From Escherichia phage DCP80, in sequence record PQ671644.1: a DNA stretch of 64,000 nt; one strand, 5' to 3'. A model generated the notes under the pieces. The model did no database searches, had not been told where the DNA came from, and saw nothing but the letters and a program-made list of their open reading frames with translations. Of the stretch, positions 1,470 through 62,940 are shown in pieces. The position numbers were made by a program, and so were the translations under genes. Numbering within the stretch: the stretch's first letter is position 1; the number at the start of each line of letters is the position of its first letter.

Positions 1470-1744
1470 AATTTTATATCTACGATTACAAAAACCAATT
1501 AAGAACCAACCAGATTGTTCGTACTGGTGATTTGAACCATCAGAACCCTAACGTTTATTCAATCAAGATATACGGTACGAAAACACAACTTGAACAAAAT
1601 CCGGACCAGCTAATCAAAGCTGCTCTGCGTCGTATCAGCGAACAATTCGTAGATACAACTTACATCATTCCTGAGGTTGAAATCCAGATAACTGGTGGAT
1701 TGAAATCTTATGCTGAAATTTTTGTGAGGACTTATGAACATTGA
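1466..1744 (+). CDS. Hypothetical protein upstream of terminase
   Basis: 92-aa ORF translationally coupled to flanking genes. Confidence 0.4.
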   Translation: MKFYIYDYKNQLRTNQIVRTGDLNHQNPNVYSIKIYGTKTQLEQNPDQLIKAALRRISEQFVDTTYIIPEVEIQITGGLKSYAEIFVRTYEH

Positions 1745-3716
1745 AGAAAATTTGAGTGTTGAATTCCCTGAAGAAGTTGAACAAGAACAATTCAACCCTG
1801 TAGTTGAACGTATGAAAATTAAAAACATAATCCAGAGAGTATCAAAGTATATCAAAGCTCCTGAAGTGTGTAAGCCATCAGAATGGGTTGAGCGTAATTT
1901 GTATTTCCCTGATGGTCCGATGGCTAACCAACCGATGAAGCTTGATAACTTCCAGAAGGGAATGATTGATTCCATCAACGAAGGCAAGGTTAAAATTATT
2001 TTCATGACCTCCGCACAGATAGGAAAGACAACTGTTCTTAATGGTATGTTGTTCTGGAAATCTGCAATCGAAGGTGGAAACGTTGGTATCGCACAGGCAA
2101 CAGGCAAGGAAGTGTCTAACTGGTTGAACAGTAAGATAAGACCAATGATTGAAGTCTCCCCTGTTATGAAAGACCTGGTTGCGTCAAAAGCTGACCGTGA
2201 TAAATCAAACAACGAATCACGTATCGACCTTATGAACGGTGGTACATGGTTCATGATGTCATTAGGTTCCCCTACGCACCTGCGTGGTAAGACATTACCA
2301 ATGATTCTGATGGACGAAGTTGAAGGCGCAGAAGAATCTGAAGAAGGTTCTCCTATTAACCTGGCTGCCAAACGTGCAACGACTTTCCAGGACGAAGCGA
2401 GATTGATTATTTGCTCAACGCCAAATACGAAGTACGGTCCTATCAATAAAGAATTCGAAGCTTCTGATAAACGATACTTCATGGTTGATTGCCCCCATTG
2501 TGGTCATAATCACAGGATTACGTTTAAAGAGTGTATTAAATTCAATATGATACGTGAACAAGGTAAAGAGATTCCTGATGTTGATTCAGCTGTTCAAATC
2601 TGTCCTTCATGTGAACAGACCATAACAGATATCCAACGTACACGTATGATTCATAACGGTAAATGGGTAGCAACTAATCCAAACTCAAGCTCCATTGGAT
2701 TCCATATCTCTGCTCTTTATTCTCCGCGAAACTCCGTAAAAGGAATCGTGGAAGAGTATAAACAAGCGAGAGCATCGTTTGATGTTAAAAGTTTTTACAA
2801 CACAGTTCTGGGTGAACCATGGTCTGACGGAAACGAAAACATTGAGCTGCATGTTATTGATTCATTAAGAGAACCTATTGGATTGGAAAACATACCTGAT
2901 GATGTGTTGTTCTTAACAGCGGGCGTTGACCAACAGAAAGACCGTTTAGAAATTACAATCTTCGGTCACACAAAACATAAGCTGTACGTATTATCACACA
3001 AATCCATCCACGGACAGAACCTTGAATTGCATAACGACCCGGCATACAAAGGACTATATAATTACATAAGATTACCGTTCACAACTTGTACAGGTCGTAA
3101 GTTGACATTAGCACGAGTTAACATGGACTCCGGTAACGGTCGAGCAACGAAGGTAATTTATTCTTTTGCGCAGAAATGGAACAATATAAAGCCTATCAAA
3201 GGTGCATCAAAAGTTGAAGCTCCGTTTATTCCACCAAAATCTTCAACATCAGGTGGTTATGAATTATGGATGATTGGTGTTAACGAAGGCAAAAACAAAG
3301 TTCGTGAAATTCTTGCATCAAACATAAATGAGGCTGATACTCCTGAACTGGAATTGTCATTGTCTGATGATTTACCTGATGATTATGCTGAACAGTTGTT
3401 ATCAGAAGAAGTTGTCAAATCTGGTACAGCCAGACGCTGGGTAATCAGAAAAGGTGGTGGCCGAAATGAGTGCCTTGATACGTTTGTTTACGGATTAGCT
3501 GCTAGATTTCAAGTACTTAATACAAGTAATTGGGGATTCTGGGAAAAACTGAAAGACAAGAATGAAAAAACTGAGCAAATATCTCAAGAAGAAATTGATG
3601 AATCGGTAGAAACAGGTGTTGTTAACTATGTTGATATTAAACCTGAGAAACCAAAAGTTCAAAGACCACAACGTCCGCAAAGACCAAGGCCAACAACACA
3701 AAGAAGGAGATTCTAA
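1734..3716 (+). CDS. Terminase large subunit, lambda gpA-like
   Basis: 660 aa; CPHCGH...CPSC zinc motif, TAGVDQQKDRLE nuclease region and C-terminal FVYGLAA recalled from lambda gpA. Confidence 0.8.
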   Translation: MNIEENLSVEFPEEVEQEQFNPVVERMKIKNIIQRVSKYIKAPEVCKPSEWVERNLYFPDGPMANQPMKLDNFQKGMIDSINEGKVKIIFMTSAQIGKTTVLNGMLFWKSAIEGGNVGIAQATGKEVSNWLNSKIRPMIEVSPVMKDLVASKADRDKSNNESRIDLMNGGTWFMMSLGSPTHLRGKTLPMILMDEVEGAEESEEGSPINLAAKRATTFQDEARLIICSTPNTKYGPINKEFEASDKRYFMVDCPHCGHNHRITFKECIKFNMIREQGKEIPDVDSAVQICPSCEQTITDIQRTRMIHNGKWVATNPNSSSIGFHISALYSPRNSVKGIVEEYKQARASFDVKSFYNTVLGEPWSDGNENIELHVIDSLREPIGLENIPDDVLFLTAGVDQQKDRLEITIFGHTKHKLYVLSHKSIHGQNLELHNDPAYKGLYNYIRLPFTTCTGRKLTLARVNMDSGNGRATKVIYSFAQKWNNIKPIKGASKVEAPFIPPKSSTSGGYELWMIGVNEGKNKVREILASNINEADTPELELSLSDDLPDDYAEQLLSEEVVKSGTARRWVIRKGGGRNECLDTFVYGLAARFQVLNTSNWGFWEKLKDKNEKTEQISQEEIDESVETGVVNYVDIKPEKPKVQRPQRPQRPRPTTQRRRF

Positions 3717-5788: not shown

Positions 5789-7789
5789 ATGTCGCAAACA
5801 ATCAGATTAAAACGTGAAATTTCTGTAGAGAAAATTCAGGCTGATGAAGACGGGATTTATGAAATTGCATTTTCTTCTGAAACCCCTGTTGAACGTCAGA
5901 TTGATACTCGTCACGGTCCACAAATTGTGAATGAAATTCTCATGCACACAGGTCCGGAAAACGCAGATTTAGAGCGTATAAATAATAATGCAAGCTTGCT
6001 GTTTAACCACAATTTCGACAACCATTTAGGTGTTGTTGTTCCTGGTTCAGTACGTATTGACAATGATAAAGTTGGCCGCGCTAAAGTAAAATTTTCAAGC
6101 GTTGGACAATTAGCACAAGAGATTAAAGCCAAGGTCGATGAAGGCACAATCTCAAAAATTTCGTTTGGATACGACATTAACGAGTATGATGTTGTTGGTG
6201 ATGACATGCTTGTTTCTCGTTGGGCACCATATGAAATTTCTTTCGTCACTGTCCCGGCAGATGATAAGGTTGGCCTCGGCCGCAGTATAAATAATATTGT
6301 AATTAACACAAATAAGGAAAAACGAATGAAACGTTACGAAGATTTTGAAATTGAAGACATCGTTGAACTGTCACGTGAAGAACTCGCTGATATGACAATC
6401 GCTGAAATCGAAGCCCTGGCTGAAGATGTACGTGCTAAGCGTGAAGAATTGCTTGACGAAGTTGAAGACGCTGAGAAAGAAGAAAAAGTTACCGATGAAG
6501 AAGATGCTGACTACGACAAAGCTGAAGGCAAAGATGCAGAAGCTAAAGTTGAAGATAAAAAAGCCGAAGGCATCGAAGACGAACTCACTGCTGAAGAGCG
6601 TGAAGAAGAAATCATCGAAATTGAAGAAATCGCTGAACGATACAAAATCGGTCGCGGAGAAGTTCGCAAAGCCATCGCAAGTGGCATGACTGCTCGTCAG
6701 TTCAAACGTTCTATTAAACCATCTAAAAACAAAAAGGAAATTCGTACTATGACTACCTCTATCGCTAAAGATACCCAGAAAAACCTCGAAGCTCGTTTTG
6801 ACCTGGCTGAAGTAACCCGTTCACTTGCTGCTGGTAAAGACATTAAAGGCGCTGCTGCTGAGTACTCTCAGGAAATGACTCGTAAACGTCAGAACGCAGG
6901 TCGTGACATTAACGGTCGTGCATATATCCCGGTAAGTGCTCTGCAAGGTCAGCGCGCAGTAAACACCGTTCCTACCGTTGCAAATATCGAACAGCACTAC
7001 GTTGATTACAACAGCTTTGTTGAATTGCTGCTCAAACCAACTGTAATTGGTAAACTGGGTGTTAACTTCCAGACCGGTCTGACCACTCCTTACGATGTAC
7101 CGAAACAAACTTCCAGCTCTGTTGATGCGTTTGGTTTCGTTGCTGAAAACGGTGACTCTCCTGAAGGCGAAAGCGGATTTGACATCATCAAATTCATGCC
7201 GCACACCTTTACTGGTGGTAACCCGATTTCTCGTCAGGCTCTTAACACCATGCCTAACCTGGCAAGCTTCATCTCTAACCACATCGTAGAACAATCTCGT
7301 TCTAAGATTCAAGGTCTGATGTTTGGTTCTGCTACTGACCCGGTTGCTTCTGGTGCTAACGCTCCGCAGAGCATCATCGCTCAGTTGGTTGCTAAGCAGA
7401 TTGGTATGACCTACAAAGAATTCGTTACCCTGGCTGCTGAAGCTGAAGGTAAAGGCGTTGCAATGGACCGCTTCAAGTATCTGATTGCTTCTGCACTTGG
7501 TGGTGAACTGAAATCCACTCTGCGTGATGCTGCTGTTGCTGGTTACATCATCGATGATGAAAACCGTATCGGTGGTCATGATGTAGTTACCTCTGGTCTG
7601 GTTAAACCTGGTCAGATTCTGTCTGGTGACTTCTCTGCAATCACTGTTGCTGAATGGGAAGGTCTGGCACTGGATATGGACGACACGACCTATCGTAACA
7701 AAGGCGCTATCGTTCCGCGTGTTTGGTGTGATATCGATTGGAAAGTTACTGCTGACGACCGTCTGTTCTTGTTCGAAAAGACAGCATAA
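5789..7789 (+). CDS. Fused prohead protease (HK97/S78-like) - acidic scaffold - major capsid protein
   Basis: N-terminus has LLFNHNFDNHLG and ISFVTVPADDKV motifs like HK97 gp4; central acidic coiled coil; C-terminal ~330 aa capsid-like. Confidence 0.7.
   Translation: MSQTIRLKREISVEKIQADEDGIYEIAFSSETPVERQIDTRHGPQIVNEILMHTGPENADLERINNNASLLFNHNFDNHLGVVVPGSVRIDNDKVGRAKVKFSSVGQLAQEIKAKVDEGTISKISFGYDINEYDVVGDDMLVSRWAPYEISFVTVPADDKVGLGRSINNIVINTNKEKRMKRYEDFEIEDIVELSREELADMTIAEIEALAEDVRAKREELLDEVEDAEKEEKVTDEEDADYDKAEGKDAEAKVEDKKAEGIEDELTAEEREEEIIEIEEIAERYKIGRGEVRKAIASGMTARQFKRSIKPSKNKKEIRTMTTSIAKDTQKNLEARFDLAEVTRSLAAGKDIKGAAAEYSQEMTRKRQNAGRDINGRAYIPVSALQGQRAVNTVPTVANIEQHYVDYNSFVELLLKPTVIGKLGVNFQTGLTTPYDVPKQTSSSVDAFGFVAENGDSPEGESGFDIIKFMPHTFTGGNPISRQALNTMPNLASFISNHIVEQSRSKIQGLMFGSATDPVASGANAPQSIIAQLVAKQIGMTYKEFVTLAAEAEGKGVAMDRFKYLIASALGGELKSTLRDAAVAGYIIDDENRIGGHDVVTSGLVKPGQILSGDFSAITVAEWEGLALDMDDTTYRNKGAIVPRVWCDIDWKVTADDRLFLFEKTA
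6286..6293 (+). promoter_or_regulatory. Internal TATAAATA late promoter inside the protease-capsid ORF
   Basis: TATAAATA then AAGGAAAAACGA-ATG, in frame, at about 6326. Confidence 0.5.
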
Positions 7790-22958: not shown

Positions 22959-23426
22959 ATGAAAGCAATAGAGTACAAACATATGTTATACGAAAGACAA
23001 CATGGAATTTGTCTGCTATGTAAACTTCCGCTTGAAGATGTTAAAAGTTCCCATCTAGACCACGACCACGCTTTAACAGGTCCTAATGCTGGATTCTGCC
23101 GAGGACTTCTATGTCCTAGTTGTAACGTCTTGGAAGGAACTTTGCTGCATAAATTCAACAGAAGTGGATTAAAAAGTAAAACAACCTTTACAGCTTATCT
23201 TAATAACCTGCTATCTTATTATGCAAATCCACTGCATGAAAAGATACACCCTAATTTTATTAGAGATAAGGTGAAGGCTGTTTCACGGATGAGCAATCAA
23301 AGTATCATAGCTGAAATTGAAAAACTGACCTTTAACCTCCCAGCTGATAAGTCAAAGAAAGGACTTGTCAGTTTCTATCGTAAGGCTCTTAAGAAGTCCC
23401 TGGAGGACGTATGTCTGCAAAGTTAA
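22959..23426 (+). CDS. 49: Endonuclease VII-like Holliday junction resolvase
   Basis: CLLC...HLDHDH...GLLCPSCN...HKFNRSGLK...IHPNF closely follows T4 gp49 as recalled. Confidence 0.8.
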   Translation: MKAIEYKHMLYERQHGICLLCKLPLEDVKSSHLDHDHALTGPNAGFCRGLLCPSCNVLEGTLLHKFNRSGLKSKTTFTAYLNNLLSYYANPLHEKIHPNFIRDKVKAVSRMSNQSIIAEIEKLTFNLPADKSKKGLVSFYRKALKKSLEDVCLQS

Positions 23427-24868: not shown

Positions 24869-25333
24869 ATGTCAGAAGCTTTTAACATGCTGATGAAAGA
24901 TGAAGGCATCGAGTATCATCTTTATAAATGCACGCAAGGATACTGGACAATCGGGATTGGTCATATGATTTCCCGTGATAAACAAACAGCTGAACGATTC
25001 CTTAATGAGAAATTTGGGAAGTGTGTAATAAGTAAGGAGCAGGCTATCCAGTTGTTCAAGCAAGATTATAATCATGCAGTATTAGGTGCACAGAGTATCG
25101 TAAGATTAGACACCTACCGTGAATTAGCATTGTCTAATATGGTTTTCCAGATGGGACTTGGTGGTGTACTGAAGTTCAAGAAAATGATAGCTGCACTGAA
25201 GATACAAGACTGGAACGAAGCTTATAAGCAGGCTTTAGATTCTACATGGTATAAACAAACACCTAATCGTGCCAAACGTGTGGCCGAGGTACTAAGAGAT
25301 GGGAAACAAGCATATGTCAAACATTACTCCTGA
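24869..25333 (+). CDS. e: Lysozyme, T4 e-type (GH24)
   Basis: EG..Y.C..GYWTIGIGH, NMVFQMG and WYKQTPNRAKRV match T4 lysozyme motifs. Confidence 0.85.
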   Translation: MSEAFNMLMKDEGIEYHLYKCTQGYWTIGIGHMISRDKQTAERFLNEKFGKCVISKEQAIQLFKQDYNHAVLGAQSIVRLDTYRELALSNMVFQMGLGGVLKFKKMIAALKIQDWNEAYKQALDSTWYKQTPNRAKRVAEVLRDGKQAYVKHYS

Positions 25334-25526
25334 AATGATTGCTGAACTATACGTTGAGAATCATAACTTAAAGCGTCAATTCAAAGCTGCTAACGATTTC
25401 GTCGGGCAGGTAGCCATGGCTCTCCAGATGGATTCTGAAGACTCTATCGTAACTTATGAAGCATTGTCTAACAAGTTAGCTTCCGCGCTCGCCGGGGCCT
25501 CCCAGGGCGTCCAGGAAAAGCAATAG
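25299..25526 (+). CDS. Hypothetical protein
   Basis: 75-aa ORF overlapping lysozyme end; weak. Confidence 0.25.
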   Translation: MGNKHMSNITPEMIAELYVENHNLKRQFKAANDFVGQVAMALQMDSEDSIVTYEALSNKLASALAGASQGVQEKQ

Positions 25527-25534
25527 TTACTTTC

Positions 25535-25554
25535 CGGGGGCCCCCTCCCCGGGA
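25535..25554. promoter_or_regulatory. GC-rich near-dyad element CCGGGGGCCCCCTCCCCGGG, candidate cos nicking site
   Basis: Isolated GC-rich imperfect twofold symmetry in AT-rich region ~200 bp upstream of Nu1-like gene. Confidence 0.4.
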
Positions 25555-25759
25555 TGTTACGCCCACCCATTCTTCTGTTTACCAGAAATTTTTTTGGGAT
25601 AGCTAACACAACTTTATAATTATAAAATATTTTTTAAAATTAAAAATAGTTTTGAAAATAAATTTTGATTTTAAAATTAATTTTACAATTCATGAACTTA
25701 TAAGTTCTTAATTTCTAAAAGATTTTCAAGAGCTTTTCCAAAACTGATGAGGAATTAAA

Positions 25760-26251
25760 ATGTCAACCAAAGACCCGATTTATCTTAACCAAAAACAAAT
25801 CTCCGAATCCTACGGAGTTACGCGCCAGACGATTGCAGAGTGGCAGAAGCGTGAAAATCCAATTCCGTGGATTGCTGGACGGGGATATCCGATGCCTGAT
25901 GCCGGAGTTTGGATTGCAGAAAATTTTATAAAAACTTTAAGACAGAACAACGAAGCACAGGATTTTAATTATCACAAGACAAGGAAGATGGCAGCAGAAG
26001 CGGACATTGCTGAAAGGGAAAACATGCTCGAGGCGCAATCCGTTATCAGAACAGATTTCGTAGAAGAGGAGTTAAGGAATTTTGTTACAAGAGTTAAGGA
26101 AACCCTCCGCGTCATTCCATTGAAGTATGCAGAAGATATTGCTATAAGAGCAACAAGCACATCAGAAGTTAAGAAGGCATTAAGGGAAGCGATTGATAAA
26201 TCCCTGAACGAGATTGACCTGTTGATGTTGTTTGAAGAGCATGAAGAATAA
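25760..26251 (+). CDS. Terminase small subunit, lambda Nu1-like winged HTH
   Basis: KQISESYGVTRQTIAEWQKRE parallels Nu1 KQLADIFGASIRTIQNWQEQG; downstream coiled region matches Nu1 layout. Confidence 0.55.
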   Translation: MSTKDPIYLNQKQISESYGVTRQTIAEWQKRENPIPWIAGRGYPMPDAGVWIAENFIKTLRQNNEAQDFNYHKTRKMAAEADIAERENMLEAQSVIRTDFVEEELRNFVTRVKETLRVIPLKYAEDIAIRATSTSEVKKALREAIDKSLNEIDLLMLFEEHEE

Positions 26252-26281: not shown

Positions 26282-26298
26282 GGTCCCTTACGTCATTC
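26282..26298. terminator. Bidirectional terminator hairpin between convergent genes
   Basis: AAAAAA-GGGACCCGAAGGTCCC. Confidence 0.65.
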
Positions 26299-26532
26299 CC
26301 ACTTAATCGTTGCTACTCGCTCATACACGAGACGTAAATCAATCTTTCCTTTTACGGTATATGTTCTTTGAACTTCCCCTTGTGCTTCCACTGTGAGGCT
26401 ATCAATTAATTCATCGTTTTGATACAATCGATATAGGTTTTTCTGACGGTTTGAAATTGTTAAAGTACGTTGAACTTCTTCTTTAGTATCTTCCAATTTA
26501 TGGAGAGCTTTTAGACTAGTTGATTCGTACAT
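26293..26532 (-). CDS. Hypothetical protein
   Basis: 79-aa ORF. Confidence 0.4.
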   Translation of the reverse strand: MYESTSLKALHKLEDTKEEVQRTLTISNRQKNLYRLYQNDELIDSLTVEAQGEVQRTYTVKGKIDLRLVYERVATIKWE

Positions 26533-26563
26533 AGTTTTCCTTTTTAAAGGGGACCGAAGTCCC

Positions 26564-26890
26564 TTATGCGTATAAGTGTTTTTCTTTCTTACGAAGACAG
26601 TTTTCAGAAGCTGTCAGGAGCTGCAAGTTACTTGGAGCGTTGTTCTTGCGGTTAAAATCGATATGGTCAATGTGCATACCCTCAGGAACTTCAGAATCGT
26701 TATCAAGCATCCACACGATTCGGTGAGCATACTCGTTATTATGAACCGGGTGGAAAACATGGATATAACCAGAAGGTAATTCGTAACCAGCTTCTTTGCC
26801 AGCGTGCTTACCAGTGGTGTAAATCAGTTTGTCATCAACGATTGCATAGTGAGCTTTAACGATGTCGAGAGTAATTTTAGTACGTGCCAT
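26564..26890 (-). CDS. HNH endonuclease
   Basis: HIDHIDFNRKNNAPSNLQLLTASEN HNH motif. Confidence 0.7.
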   Translation of the reverse strand: MARTKITLDIVKAHYAIVDDKLIYTTGKHAGKEAGYELPSGYIHVFHPVHNNEYAHRIVWMLDNDSEVPEGMHIDHIDFNRKNNAPSNLQLLTASENCLRKKEKHLYA

Positions 26891-26908
26891 TTGATATACC
26901 TTTTAAAA

Positions 26909-26957
26909 ATGAAGCACCGGAATTGATGCTTCGCGTTTTCATACTTTTATTTATAAC
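26909..26957 (-). promoter_or_regulatory. Intergenic cassette: TATAAATA, then hairpin with loop TCAATTCCGG
   Basis: Minus-strand reading TATAAATAAAAGTATGAAAACGC-GAAGCA-TCAATTCCGG-TGCTTC-ATTTTT. Confidence 0.5.
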
Positions 26958-26969
26958 AGCTTTTCGGGC

Positions 26970-27152
26970 TTATTCAGAAGTCAGAATAAATTTTTGATAC
27001 TGTTTACCAGTTATCTTGTATCTGATGAAGTTGAACAAATCGAACAAATATCCAAGAGGAATCAGAGCAATCAGAAGTGGTGCCATGATGAACATCAGGA
27101 TTGCTTGGATAACAAACAGAATTGTTTCACCCAGAAATTTTAAAATAAACAT
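26970..27152 (-). CDS. Small membrane protein
   Basis: 60 aa, two hydrophobic segments. Confidence 0.4.
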   Translation of the reverse strand: MFILKFLGETILFVIQAILMFIMAPLLIALIPLGYLFDLFNFIRYKITGKQYQKFILTSE

Positions 27153-27185
27153 AGTTCTCCCGTTGGGGCCGAAGCCCCAGATAAG

Positions 27186-27401
27186 TTAGCGAATTGATTT
27201 TTGTTCTTTAGCGCGATTCTTAATACCAAGTCCTTGCATCGTGGCTTCGATAACCTCGATTGCTTTAACACGTTTTTCATACTCTGCCAGAGTGATTTGT
27301 TTTTTGGCGAATTGTACATAAAGGGCAGACATAGCTTCGTAACTGTTCATAGGATTTCTCTTTAAAGGGAGACACCGGAATTGATGTCTCGTTGTTTTCA
27401 T
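27186..27401 (-). CDS. Hypothetical small protein (true start probably the internal ATG near 27347)
   Basis: Track start lies inside the TATAAATA motif; internal ATG has SD AAAGAG. Confidence 0.35.
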   Translation of the reverse strand: MKTTRHQFRCLPLKRNPMNSYEAMSALYVQFAKKQITLAEYEKRVKAIEVIEATMQGLGIKNRAKEQKSIR

Positions 27402-27418
27402 ACATTTATTTATAACGG
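27369..27418 (-). promoter_or_regulatory. Intergenic cassette: TATAAATA, then hairpin with same loop and covarying stem
   Basis: Stem GAGACA/TGTCTC versus GAAGCA/TGCTTC in the 26909 copy; loop TCAATTCCGG identical. Confidence 0.5.
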
Positions 27419-27422
27419 TCTT

Positions 27423-27713
27423 TTAACGCTTTTTAAAACCACCGAAGAAGGTGCCAGATAATGATTGAGCGATTTTAGAAGCTTCATAGTTGTTTGATTC
27501 AACTTCACCATACTTCCAACCTTTACCAAGGAGTTTCAACCATTTCAATCTAGCGATTGTCACATCATGACCTGCGCAAAGGAGTTCAAATTCTTCCAGT
27601 TCATCATTAAGTAGATAAGCAAGTTTTTCTTTATCCACAGCGTATGTCCAATTGGTACCTTCGAATTCGAAGAAAACTGAATCACCGTGGGTTTCTACAT
27701 TTTTAATCTTCAT
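27423..27713 (-). CDS. Hypothetical protein
   Basis: 96-aa ORF. Confidence 0.4.
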   Translation of the reverse strand: MKIKNVETHGDSVFFEFEGTNWTYAVDKEKLAYLLNDELEEFELLCAGHDVTIARLKWLKLLGKGWKYGEVESNNYEASKIAQSLSGTFFGGFKKR

Positions 27714-27904
27714 TAGATTTCCTTTACAATAAATTTATAAGTTACTTGGGACTCTTTAAAGACAGCTTCCGTTGCCCATTCTTCAGGTTTTTTCGAAAGC
27801 TCTGTGTGATAAAGCATTGCAGCTTCACCCTCTTGTGCTTCCAAAGCTTCTATGTAGCTTCGGCCTTCTTTAAGTTTAATAACACCGCAATCTATGATTC
27901 TCAT
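27713..27904 (-). CDS. Hypothetical protein
   Basis: 63-aa ORF. Confidence 0.35.
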   Translation of the reverse strand: MRIIDCGVIKLKEGRSYIEALEAQEGEAAMLYHTELSKKPEEWATEAVFKESQVTYKFIVKEI

Positions 27905-28215
27905 TTCTTGTCCAGTAGTTGTTGGTAAAATTCGATATGAGCATAAACATCTTGAATCCCGTGTAGGTAATCATCAAAGGTGATGTCCAGGTCTTCAAAG
28001 AAGTTATGATAAATTTCTTGTAGTTTGGTATAACCGTTTTCGTTAGTCATAAGTACCTCGTTGTTTTCATAATTTTATTTATACTGATTAATACTGGTTT
28101 AAATGGCGCCACAACGTGGTTCTGGATATACTATGTTTCTTCAGAACAGATTTCTTATCTTTACGACGAGCATTTTTATACTCGTCTGCAATTTGATTTA
28201 ACTTCTCGTTGGTCA

Positions 28216-28947
28216 TTAAAATTTTACGCATAACAGGTTGTCCAGTTGGTCTTCATGGGTTTCGATTAAGATTTCAGATTCCAGAGCTTCAGCAGCCTGA
28301 ATCATTGTGGCAGTATCACCACCAGCTTTAGCAACGTGAATCACAGTATCGAATTTACGTTTGTAAAGATTTTTCAGTTTAACTTCTTTAGTTTTCTGTG
28401 CAAAGTGTTTTTCAGATTTACGTTTAACTTCAACCAGTTCTTCTTTAACAACTTCAACTTCTTCTTCAGCTTCCTGGATAGCAACGTTTGCTTTCTTCAG
28501 AGCAGCATGTTGTGCACGAATGATTTCCATCATTTCTTCCACAGATAATTCCTCAAGATTGTTGATGTCAAATTTGACAACTTCTTTCTTTTCAACATGG
28601 TGATTAGAATTAACGGTATCGATTTCGTAAATCCAAGTTTTGTCACCGCGACGAGTCATTTCCAGGTTCTGCTGGATATAACCTTTACCTACTTTGTGAA
28701 TCACACGAGCTGAATTCCAATCAGTATGAACTACACAGATTGAATTTTCAAATTCTGCAACAAAGTAATCTCCCTCACCAAAATCAACTGCTTTAGCTTT
28801 AACTGCACGATACAGAGAACGATTAGCTGAACCAATTTCTTGTAACAAAGATTTAACAGAACTAGCATGAATTACTTTGGTTGCATTTTGTACAGACATG
28901 TTGCTTTCAGCTTGGTTTTCGCATTTTTTAAAAAGTTTGATAATCAT
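28216..28947 (-). CDS. Hypothetical protein with C-terminal charged coiled coil
   Basis: 243-aa ORF, no family recognised. Confidence 0.45.
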   Translation of the reverse strand: MIIKLFKKCENQAESNMSVQNATKVIHASSVKSLLQEIGSANRSLYRAVKAKAVDFGEGDYFVAEFENSICVVHTDWNSARVIHKVGKGYIQQNLEMTRRGDKTWIYEIDTVNSNHHVEKKEVVKFDINNLEELSVEEMMEIIRAQHAALKKANVAIQEAEEEVEVVKEELVEVKRKSEKHFAQKTKEVKLKNLYKRKFDTVIHVAKAGGDTATMIQAAEALESEILIETHEDQLDNLLCVKF

Positions 28948-29772
28948 GTGTTTTCCTTTATTTGTTAATCGTGTTATTATTTAGAATTAAAAAGTGATGT
29001 GTAATTCTTTGTTGATTTCAAAGATGACAGTTGCTAATGTCAAGTTGTGTTCTTTACACCAATCAGCACGTTTAGCCGGTGGCAATTTGTTTAACGCACA
29101 GAAGATTTTCATTAATTTAATCTGATAAGAATTCATGGTGACCTCAAGTGTTTCGATGTTTGTTAGGGTTTAAAAAAGAGGTTGTTCACCTCGTCGCTTT
29201 CATACATTTATTTATACACTAATTTTCGGCTCATTAGACAATCAGAAAAGTTCAATCCGGATTCAATCGCGTCAGGAGAATTTCCATGATAATATTTATC
29301 TCTTTATACTCACAAAAAACATTGAAACACATTTTGCAGTTTTTGGACTTTTAATCAAAAAAGGCTGTTTTTGATATTTCCGGGGGGTGCCTATGCCTTC
29401 CGGAGCACTTTTTGAGGCAAAAGTTATAAGAAACCTATTTTAATATATCAAAAGGTAATAACAAAGGCCTTTTTTCCCTCAAAAAACGTCAGAAAAAGGC
29501 TGTTTTTTCAGCTTATTTTGAGCCTTTTTTGAAGGTTCATTTTTGGGACTTTTAATCAAAAAACAAGGGAATTTTTCGGGAGCAGTACAGGGGTACTATC
29601 AGATGATAGGAGCTATCATTTAGAAGGGAGAATTGTGATTACTTATGACCGTTATACGATTGTATCGCGATTATTTGGTCAAATAACGACGAAATAATCA
29701 AAATAAATCATCGAAACACTTAGAAAACAGGCTGTTTTAGGTATAAAAATGGCCCCTTTCGGAGCCTAAAAT

Positions 29773-29979
29773 TTATTTCATACGCAGGTATTTTTCATAA
29801 CTAACTTTTGACAGAGCCAAATAGTAAGCTGCATCTTTTTCTCCCGATAATTTACCTTCAGCAACTGTTGCACAATCTTCTTTGAAAGTTGCTTCCCAGG
29901 AAAATCCATCAAGCCAATCGGAAAATTGTTGTTCGTTCATATTAACCTCTGTAATGTCTGTTGTAATGGTGTACTGCAA
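29773..29979 (-). CDS. Hypothetical protein
   Basis: 68-aa ORF. Confidence 0.35.
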   Translation of the reverse strand: MQYTITTDITEVNMNEQQFSDWLDGFSWEATFKEDCATVAEGKLSGEKDAAYYLALSKVSYEKYLRMK

Positions 29980-30288
29980 TTTCTGTGCAAAGGTCTTCGA
30001 AGACCAATGGGATTATGTTTTCTCGGTAGACAACATAACTGTACTGTCTGTAGGTGTAGACCTCTTTATATTTCTCGAAGAACATAAACAGGTCTTGATT
30101 AGCTGTAACTTCTAACGGGGTGATTTTCCCGGCTGCATCAACTATCATACTTCCTCCTTATTAACTTAATAATAGGCTCCCGCTCAGAAACCTATGATAA
30201 GGTACCACACATGAATTTAATCAAAGGTCTTCACATCACTAAAGACCTTTTGTTAAACACATGAATCAGGTCATCACTCCTGATACTT

Positions 30289-30609
30289 TTATTTATAACG
30301 GGATTTATTCATCCATTCAAATATGCCAGGGTTCCATTCGATGTTACCCATCGCTACATAATGATTGATTGCTTCTCGCAGAGACACCTGGAAGAATTCG
30401 GATTCGTCAAGTAATGAAACAATGATTTCCCCTTGTGCCTGTAAATCATCAACTGTCATCATGGAAAGAATTTCATATGCTGATTGAATTTCGTCTTCTG
30501 TGAAATCTGTGTCGAACCAATCATTAAGGTTATCATCAGATTTGTAATTATTGTAATAAGCCATACCTTCGATAACCAGATTGATAATTTCATTTACGTT
30601 GTTCATAAT
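30289..30609 (-). CDS. Hypothetical acidic protein
   Basis: ~106 aa from ATG near 30609; track ORF 30289..30768 reads through the N-run. Confidence 0.4.
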   Translation of the reverse strand: MMNNVNEIINLVIEGMAYYNNYKSDDNLNDWFDTDFTEDEIQSAYEILSMMTVDDLQAQGEIIVSLLDESEFFQVSLREAINHYVAMGNIEWNPGIFEWMNKSRYK

Positions 30610-30710
30610 TTTCTCTTTGTGTTTGGTTGATATGATAATGATACACCCTTTTGATGAGGTTGTAAACCCCTTATTGCAAATACATCTGGCATTGAAACAA
30701 ATAAATGCCA

Positions 30711-30720
30711 NNNNNNNNNN
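30711..30720. other. Assembly gap (N10), scaffold joint
   Basis: Run of N after the repeated terminal 111 bp. Confidence 0.9.
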
Positions 30721-31678: not shown

Positions 31679-31765
31679 AGTTTTTATGATTCATTGTGTA
31701 ACTCAGTATGGAATCATTATGCCTCATGACCATCTGGTTGTACACTACTTTTTTAAAATAAAAAA

Positions 31766-35518: not shown

Positions 35519-35762
35519 TCTGTTTTCCTCACGCATAACGATTGTATGTATTTTTACGACAAGCGTAAAATTGACGCTCAGTAACTGCAAAACTTTTTCC
35601 GCGTTGTTGCATTAATTTAAAAAATTCAGTAATATCGCCATTAACTTCAAGGTATAAAGTCATTGCATATTGAGCAGGTTTCATTTTATTCTCCAGTCTG
35701 TTTGGTAACTCAGTATGGAATCATTATGCACTGACTCCATACTGATGTACACTACTTTTTAA

Positions 35763-40983: not shown

Positions 40984-41040
40984 GTTTCGCACGNNNNNNN
41001 NNNNNNNNNNNNNNNNNNNNNNNNNNNNNNNNNNNNNNNN
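40984..41040. other. Assembly gap (N57), scaffold joint
   Basis: N-run; removes 5' end of gene 39. Confidence 0.9.
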
Positions 41041-49790: not shown

Positions 49791-49800
49791 NNNNNNNNNN
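49791..49800. other. Assembly gap (N10), scaffold joint
   Basis: N-run; truncates arm 2. Confidence 0.9.
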
Positions 49801-56742: not shown

Positions 56743-56760
56743 NNNNNNNNNNNNNNNNNN
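56743..56760. other. Assembly gap (N18), scaffold joint
   Basis: N-run; T4 synteny and strand break here. Confidence 0.9.
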
Positions 56761-58955: not shown

Positions 58956-59033
58956 ATGGTTTTCCTTTTAACAGTTGGTTTATTGTGTAACTCAGTATGA
59001 AATCATTATGTCCTAAGACAAGGGGCTTGTACA

Positions 59034-59282
59034 CTATTTTAATTCATTAATTAAATGAAAATCTTGTGCATTGAAAGTAATGAAAAAATAATCATTCCCT
59101 TCAACTGAAGCATGACAGGCAACACTACACCAGCGCCTTGCTCTGTTCAAGGAGCAATCCAAAATTTTAAAAGGCTTCAGACCAACAATGGCAGCTGTTC
59201 TTTTATTATGCTCACAAATATCAGCATACTTTTGGAGAGCTTCTTCAGATTTGAACTGGTAATGCACATTAACTAATAACAT
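59034..59282 (-). CDS. Hypothetical protein
   Basis: 82-aa ORF. Confidence 0.35.
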   Translation of the reverse strand: MLLVNVHYQFKSEEALQKYADICEHNKRTAAIVGLKPFKILDCSLNRARRWCSVACHASVEGNDYFFITFNAQDFHLINELK

Positions 59283-62886: not shown

Positions 62887-62940
62887 NNNNNNNNNNNNNN
62901 NNNNNNNNNNNNNNNNNNNNNNNNNNNNNNNNNNNNNNNN
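62887..62940. other. Assembly gap (N54)
   Basis: N-run inside ORF 62652..63104; frame-preserving length. Confidence 0.9.

Follow-up and report, generated by a model that had tools for sequence, protein, structure and literature searches.

Probable cos packaging site upstream of a Nu1-like small terminase gene in an uncultivated 30.6-kb tailed phage

Gene content of the genome and its terminase subunits

The analyzed window, by which we mean the whole 64-kb stretch of DNA, is composed of six contigs separated by runs of N (30711-30720, 40994-41040, 49791-49800, 56743-56760 and 62887-62940). The first contig, block 1 (positions 1-30710; 39.3% G+C), has identical 111-nt ends (1-111 = 30600-30710), thus it represents a circularly assembled genome of 30,599 bp. 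Its rightward genes begin with a 60-aa ORF and a 92-aa ORF, followed by the gene for a gpA-type large terminase subunit (TerL, 1734-3716, plus strand), and continue with a head-tail joining protein, a portal protein of the lambda family, a 666-aa protease-capsid fusion, the tail genes, an endonuclease VII homologue, a lysozyme (24869-25333) and a 75-aa ORF (25299-25526). After the 75-aa ORF come a 233-bp gap and the Nu1-like gene for the small terminase subunit (TerS, 25760-26251, plus strand). The leftward early region on the opposite strand (26293-30606) consists of ~4.3 kb of small ORFs and intergenic DNA and includes an HNH_3 endonuclease gene. A non-coding, repeat-rich region of 1.3 kb (1-1286) closes the circle, and two small plus-strand ORFs (1287-1744) lie between this region and TerL.

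The genes of blocks 2-6 (30721-64000) include rIIA/rIIB, topoisomerase II subunits, a gp46/47-like SbcCD nuclease, a clamp loader, a gp41-like helicase and UvsX; these blocks come from T4-like phages and have no relation to block 1. Over ~6 kb, block 2 matches the inverted block 3 at ~96% identity, pointing to the co-assembly of two strains. A family of 65-nt intergenic repeats (GTAACTCAGTATGGAATCATTATG ... TGTACACTACTTT; 71-80% identical) in the T4-like contigs (31687-31751, 35694-35758 and 58976-59040) may represent a promoter or a regulatory cassette. No matches were obtained when the whole window was scanned for Rfam families and tRNAs.

The block 1 phage is present in Logan and ENA assemblies. 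It had no match in a nucleotide search of isolated phages (INPHARED) and was absent from the JGI metagenomes, and no relatives of its TerS were found in IMG/VR or in the GTDB species-representative genomes. The 666-aa ORF (5789-7789) carries an S78 prohead protease domain fused to an HK97-fold major capsid domain; the same fusion is found in the phiRSP/Mica/ep3 group, at ~28% identity. The homologue of T4 endonuclease VII (22959-23426; Pfam Endonuclease_7 plus a dimerisation domain), whose gene separates the tail genes from the lysis genes in the late operon, plausibly resolves DNA branches and thereby clears the DNA for packaging.

TerL matches the Pfam families PF05876 (GpA_ATPase, 8.2e-52) and PF20454 (GpA_nuclease, 3.7e-50), both far above the cut-offs, as well as phrog_15 (1.5e-129). 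Judged by these profile matches, it is a gpA-type protein of the lambda family, that is, of a cos-type and not a headful-type family. The phylogeny of TerL has been used to predict the type of genome ends, with 5' cos assigned to the lambda clade and 3' cos to the HK97 clade (PMC5000459).

TerS is a protein of 163 aa with an N-terminal winged helix-turn-helix domain. Its description as Nu1-like in the initial annotation is weak for the single protein, whose match to PF07471 (E = 4e-4) scores 20.5 bits and stays under the 30-bit cut-off, and is borne out at the family level. TerS matches phrog_57 (terminase small subunit) with E = 9.4e-20, a profile of TerS and 39 distant homologues matches the lambda Nu1 structures 6hn7_B (4e-14) and 1j9i (1e-12), and 23 of the 40 sequences of this family match PF07471. 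In a one-subject pairwise BLASTP comparison, TerS and lambda Nu1 are 25.8% identical over 132 aa (E = 4.6e-10). A tblastn search of isolated phages with TerS returned one match, KA2-1 (27%).

The HNH_3 endonuclease gene (26564-26890, minus strand), which belongs to a homing-endonuclease-type family, lies ~300 nt beyond TerS and is kept in a divergent lineage, represented by contig L011. HNH proteins assist cos cleavage in HK97-like phages.

The gap upstream of the small terminase gene

The non-coding gap (25527-25759; 233 bp, 27.9% GC) extends from the stop of the 75-aa ORF to the ATG of the Nu1-like gene at 25760. The initial annotation had described it as an AT-rich stretch carrying a series of motifs before the Nu1-like start, and every one of these motifs is present. 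The GC-rich element CCGGGGGCCCCCTCCCCGGG (25534-25553), in which 19 of 20 nucleotides are G or C, tops all 20-mers of the 64-kb window in G+C, more than chance would account for; it is the same in all three read-through assemblies and starts at 25534, not at 25535 as had been implied. Next come GTTACG (25556-25561) and the 12-mer CCCACCCATTCT (25562-25573), and then the A/T repeats TTTTAAAATTA (25632-25642 and 25669-25679), TTTTGAAAATA (25650-25660) and TTTTGATTTTAAAATTAATTTTA (25663-25685). The segment 25610-25729, with 10.8% GC, is the most AT-rich stretch that we saw, and it is situated near the GC-rich element.

The imperfect symmetry ascribed to the GC-rich element is weak, as its best hairpin is no better than those of shuffled sequences (DNA fold, z = -0.86); a hairpin or cruciform role of the element was rejected for this reason. 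Neither strand of 25534-25553 was called as an intrinsic terminator: no T-tract is present, and ATGTTACG comes after the element.

A 9/10 copy of the last ten nucleotides of the element (CCTCCCCGGG, 25544-25553) occurs within the 3'-terminal part of the 75-aa ORF, at a distance of 46 nt upstream (CCTCCCAGGG, 25498-25507, plus strand; direct-repeat family D4). Apart from the element itself, the patch that holds this copy is the only very GC-rich one in the window, and one may speculate that the copy is a cosQ-like or auxiliary element.

Contig ends in the gap and the proposed cohesive ends

The physical ends of the genome were traced through contig termini in third-party assemblies (Logan and ENA). 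According to the rationale of PhageTerm, assemblers place cos ends at contig limits when unpackaged DNA is missing; end repair fills in 5' overhangs, so that both ends carry the cohesive sequence, and degrades 3' overhangs, which results in a gap (PMC5557969). The Logan contigs are built from 31-mer graphs, with singleton k-mers dropped and a SPAdes-like simplification applied (PMC12424806), therefore a shared 30-mer breaks contigs.

The exact TerS was identified on eight contigs, of which two read through the gap and six begin inside it. The read-through contigs, L001 (an ENA MEGAHIT contig of 30,478 bp) and L002 (29,973 bp), have the same sequence here as the window contig, and such read-throughs are as expected for annealed or replicating DNA. 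L003 (SRR30884460) and L006 (SRR22355887) share their first base, 25554, and begin with ATGTTACGCCC. L011, which comes from two samples, also begins at 25554, with ATGTTACGCCCACCCATT. This exact start is thus seen in 3/7 Logan contigs beginning in the 233-bp gap (four samples, two lineages), and by a rough estimate three uniform starts would coincide by chance with a probability of ~6e-4. The other four starts (25598, 25635, 25736 and 25738) all lie right of 25554, where contigs of low coverage would be expected to begin if they did not reach the end.

On the opposite side of the site, L035 (ERR3503308, 13,971 bp) comes through the tail and lysis genes and reads '...CCCCGGGATGTTACGCCCA' at its terminus (in longer form, '...CCGGGGGCCCCCTCCCCGGGATGTTACGCCCA'). 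Its last base is 25565, exactly 12 nt past 25554, and this one contig defines the right end. The contigs that start at 25554 and L035 overlap by the 12-nt sequence ATGTTACGCCCA, and a terminal sequence common to both ends is what filled-in 5' cohesive ends produce. The remaining right-side contigs stop earlier: L009, from the same sample as L003, at 25542 and L010 at 25539, both inside the GC run, and L028 at ~25487.

Taken together, these data make it highly probable that the region 25534-25759 is the cos packaging site of an uncultivated 30.6-kb tailed phage; that its ends are exactly 12-nt 5' ends at 25554 and 25565 is likely, if somewhat less so. The points against this reading are the single contig at the right end, the early stops of L009 and L010, the limited symmetry of the nick site, the lack of similarity to lambda cosN, of an IHF consensus and of a repeated TerS-binding motif, and the separation of TerS from TerL. 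The 5' polarity would follow from the presence of an overlap rather than a gap, and from the relatives of the phage. The proposed core of cosN is 25554-25565 (plus strand), as delimited by the L003, L006 and L011 starts and the L035 end, with the cohesive end 5'-ATGTTACGCCCA-3' and predicted nicks at 25553^25554 on the top strand and 25565^25566 on the bottom strand. The nick contexts are CCCGGG^ATG and AATGGG^TGG, respectively, each nick being 3' of GGG, and apart from these GGG/CCC flanks the nick site has no clear two-fold symmetry.

The placement of a cos site upstream of the Nu1-like gene, with fixed ends within 25535-25575, had been anticipated in the initial annotation, and the termini at 25554 (three contigs) and 25565 (one contig) agree with it. 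The register had been read differently there, as GTTACG plus the following 12-mer; in our reconstruction the cohesive 12-mer is ATGTTACGCCCA and GTTACG falls inside the overhang, at positions 3-8. The GC-rich element is retained as a part of the site, namely as the left flank of cosN, whose terminal GGG directly precedes the top-strand nick; it is not the cut site itself.

A cos site with 11-nt 3'-protruding ends CCCTCCCCGGG (25543-25553), the removal of which by end repair would leave a gap between contigs, appears quite unlikely; it would imply a gpA-type enzyme producing 3' instead of 5' overhangs. Such an overhang would be G/C-rich, and G/C-rich overhangs occur in many cos phages. The Rhizobium phage 16-3, annotated with HK97-like terminase subunits, is a 3' cos phage, and in HK97-type 3' cos phages (HK97 and 16-3) the fixed-end site is immediately upstream of terS, as here. 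In sample SRR30884460, the end of L009 at 25542 and the start of L003 at 25554 share no sequence, and this 11-nt gap in one contig pair resembles a 3' overhang and is predicted by the PhageTerm logic for 3' cos (PMC5557969); L010 stops 3 nt before L009. However, L035 continues for 23 nt beyond 25542, to a point exactly 12 nt after 25554, and its end at 25565 contradicts 3'-protruding ends. In addition, TerL is of the gpA type, and gpA-type terminases group with 5' cos phages whereas 3' cos is associated with HK97-type terminases. Finally, the 18-nt block that is conserved between lineages lies right of 25554 and not over 25543-25553. With 5' ends, the early stops of L009 and L010 probably arose because the graph was simplified, or coverage was low, in the GGGGGCCCCC run: errors in GGGGGCCCCC would create a graph branch, and the resulting terminal stub of ~50 nt would be lost by simplification or by the 150-bp length filter.

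The position of the site next to the small terminase gene, which pac sites often adjoin, and the assembly of block 1 as a circle are also compatible with a pac site for headful packaging or with the boundary of a direct terminal repeat. We regard either as extremely unlikely. Permuted or terminally repeated genomes read through, whereas here the contigs stop at the site from both sides; a repeat longer than k = 31 would leave the graph unbroken, and the observed overlap is 12 nt; and TerL is not of a headful type. The initial annotation had set its cos site against headful packaging and a lack of enriched termini, and what we observed instead are recurrent contig termini together with a gpA-type TerL.

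De Bruijn contigs, from which all of the end evidence comes, break for many causes, so the stops could in principle be artefacts of a GC-rich run that is hard to sequence or varies locally, with no physical ends involved. The interval would then be ordinary intergenic DNA, with a stem-loop after the lysis genes and an AT-rich promoter for a DNA-binding protein. In line with this, right-side contigs (L009 and L010) stop within the GC run, and the four further starts are scattered over the AT-rich part of the gap. Nevertheless, we consider this explanation very unlikely. Breaks caused by coverage decay or errors do not give a base-exact start in four samples and two lineages, and the common start is located one base outside the GC run, while the contigs arriving from the left end inside it. 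The terminal 30-mers at 25554 and 25565 are unique, and none of the 12-mers from 25501-25620 is repeated elsewhere in the window. The three read-through assemblies (the window contig, L001 and L002) do not vary over 25495-25617, while elsewhere their identity to the window is 91-97%, which speaks against a patch of hypervariable sequence. The supposed stem-loop lacks a T-tract and was not called as a terminator, and the 12-nt overlap equals the overhang length known for this family.

Breaks elsewhere in block 1 were inspected as well. The termini of L003, L004 and L005 at 746/747 fall at the end of an exact 30-nt repeat (717-746 = 866-895), unlike the unique terminal 30-mers of the proposed cos site; a cos site in the 1.3-kb non-coding region upstream of TerL was rejected because of this coincidence. 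L002 and L006, from two samples, end 1 nt apart at 467/468, in a GC-rich stem-loop. Their terminal 30-mers are unique and no repeat explains these ends, a point in favor of artefactual breaks in general; they may reflect strain variation or another assembly-hostile structure.

The lineage of L011 allowed us to assess the conservation of the site. Its TerS is 75% identical at the amino acid level to the TerS of block 1 and forms the sole other TerS cluster among 5.8 billion proteins. The first 18 nt (ATGTTACGCCCACCCATT, 25554-25571) are identical between the lineages (18/18), the next 41 nt (25572-25612) are 71% identical, the AT-rich core 55%, and the coding DNA of TerS 70%. The conserved 18-mer consists of the 12-nt overhang and the 6 nt that flank cosN on the right, CCCATT (25566-25571). 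Searches for ATGTTACGCCCACCCATT in IMG/VR and the JGI metagenomes returned chance matches only, inside unrelated and mostly high-GC DNA. In word-indexed protein searches, TerS had only two 90% clusters; the 75-aa ORF had one and a 79/80-aa ORF two. The relatives found in an exhaustive HMMER search are all <=42% identical and not traceable to contigs, and look-ups of exact proteins (lysozyme, a 99-aa ORF, the 79-aa ORF, EndoVII and P0118) gave nothing or nothing new.

On the basis of sequence conservation, the cosN-proximal segment 25572-25612, with the conserved blocks TTTACC, AAATTTTTTTG and TAACAYAAC, is the best candidate for cosB-like binding of the small terminase. The A/T-tract region (25613-25729), which contains low-complexity direct and inverted repeats, is possibly a bendable or flexible spacer and/or the TerS promoter. 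The initial annotation had suggested that the A/T tracts could be cosB or IHF sites, and this found no support: the E. coli-type IHF consensus WATCAANNNNTTR does not occur in 25400-25800 (six copies are present in all of block 1), the AA/TT periodicity, with weak maxima at 10 and 19 bp, shows no clear 10.5-bp phasing, and the tracts are the least conserved part between the lineages. No repeated, clearly non-low-complexity motif for TerS binding was found among the repeats of the gap. One weak sigma-70-like -35/-10 match is present at 25613-25640, and such matches are no more frequent than in shuffled sequences.

The following scheme of packaging can be proposed. The gpA-type TerL would nick twice, 12 bp apart, and virion DNA would carry 12-nt 5'-protruding ends, with ATGTTACGCCCA on the left end. 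The Nu1-like TerS, encoded 206 bp right of the left end, presumably contacts the DNA that separates the nick site from the TerS gene, with the partly conserved 25572-25612 as the most likely place. Bound there, it would position TerL and direct packaging rightward, starting from the TerS end, as happens in lambda. Annealing of the ends after injection would account for the assemblies that read through.

Comparison with known cos phages and the separated terminase genes

The site shares its general organization with that of lambda, in which a gpA-family TerL is likewise combined with a Nu1-family TerS, cos is located between the lysis genes and TerS, and the 5' overhang is 12 nt long, the same length and polarity as proposed here. 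The distance from the left end to the TerS ATG is also similar (206 nt here vs 190 nt in lambda). In contrast, the sequences differ. Each nick follows a short motif on its own strand, GGG^ here and CG^ in lambda; the overhang has 50% G+C here and 83% in lambda; and neither a lambda-like IHF consensus nor R-site repeats are recognizable. An alignment with lambda cosN (GGGCGGCGACCT and its flanks) anchored at the nicks gave 35 identities in 100 positions, that is, no homology. GTTACG is directly left of the nick in lambda, whereas here it makes up nucleotides 3-8 of the overhang, a shift of 8 nt in register, and it has 11 copies on the plus strand of the window; a relationship to lambda cosN through this hexamer was therefore dismissed as a coincidence.

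Among isolated phages, TerL and the 666-aa fusion have their closest relatives in the phiRSP/Mica/Mano/BZS1/ep3 group (~28-30% identity), which has the same combination of a gpA-type TerL with a protease-capsid fusion in the head module. Cohesive ends have been defined, by experiment or with PhageTerm, for three members of this group: 5' 12-nt ends GCATTGCGCGCC in BZS1 (PMC7556043), a 13-nt cos in Mica (PMC7883832) and cos ends in Mano (PMC7849712). The overhangs of BZS1 and lambda thus have the length proposed here. The genomes of this group are larger (~42-45 kb vs 30.6 kb), and Mano, Mica and BZS1 are described as temperate myophages, whereas no integrase was recognized in the 30.6-kb genome of block 1. 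The TerL of Mano, Mica and BZS1 starts within ~750 nt of the left end, unlike here, and in KA2-1 TerS is directly upstream of TerL at the left genome end, whereas in block 1 the two genes are split.

From the end of TerS (26251) to the start of TerL (1734) there are ~6.1 kb across the join of the 30,599-bp circle, in agreement with the ~6 kb noted in the initial annotation; in lambda, TerS adjoins TerL. The spacer is made up of the ~4.3 kb of opposite-strand genes, the non-coding region 1-1286 and the two ORFs at 1287-1744. When the map is opened at cos, its order is cos, TerS, leftward early genes, the 1.3-kb control/repeat region, the TerL-head-tail-lysis genes and cos. In the joined form TerS is downstream of the lysis genes, and by analogy with the late transcript of lambda it may be transcribed across cos; TerS would be the last, not the first, packaging gene of such a transcript. 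In a stronger version, cos and TerS would be cut off from TerL by the early region and TerS could be transcribed only across a joined cos. We find this version unlikely; if true, it would couple the supply of TerS and the initiation of packaging to a circular or concatemeric substrate. The split of TerS and TerL is a mild oddity for lambda-type packaging modules in an otherwise standard cos site, and it may be of interest for terminase assembly and late-gene regulation.

Mapping of the probable cos site shows where the genome truly ends, and hence where base 1 lies, how the map is oriented and whether it is complete, for a 30.6-kb phage lineage without a cultured relative, an IMG/VR match or a relative among the GTDB species-representative genomes. 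It also indicates that cohesive ends are readable from the termini of public k-mer assemblies without the reads.

Other repeats of block 1 are concentrated in its non-coding regions. The region 1-1286, between the leftward early genes and the TerL operon, contains tandem-like duplications of ~149 nt (700-848 / 849-997), as well as the 17-mer GATTGTTCTTAGTAGTA at 768 and 986. It also has several stem-loops that are rich in GC and carry loops of the TTCG/GAAG type, and it gave no Rfam match; it is possibly an origin or iteron region, or a source of small RNAs. A 34-nt element (TACATCTGGCATTGAAACAAATAAATGCCAGATG) is found at 82-115 and 202-235 (also at 30681-30710), just upstream of the first leftward gene. 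The two copies are 97% identical, 120 nt apart and each internally palindromic, and in sequence they look like repressor operators. In the leftward early region, the non-coding segment 29150-29780 carries repeated AAAAAGGCTGTTTT-type motifs, as well as a 26-nt repeat at 29337 and 29538.
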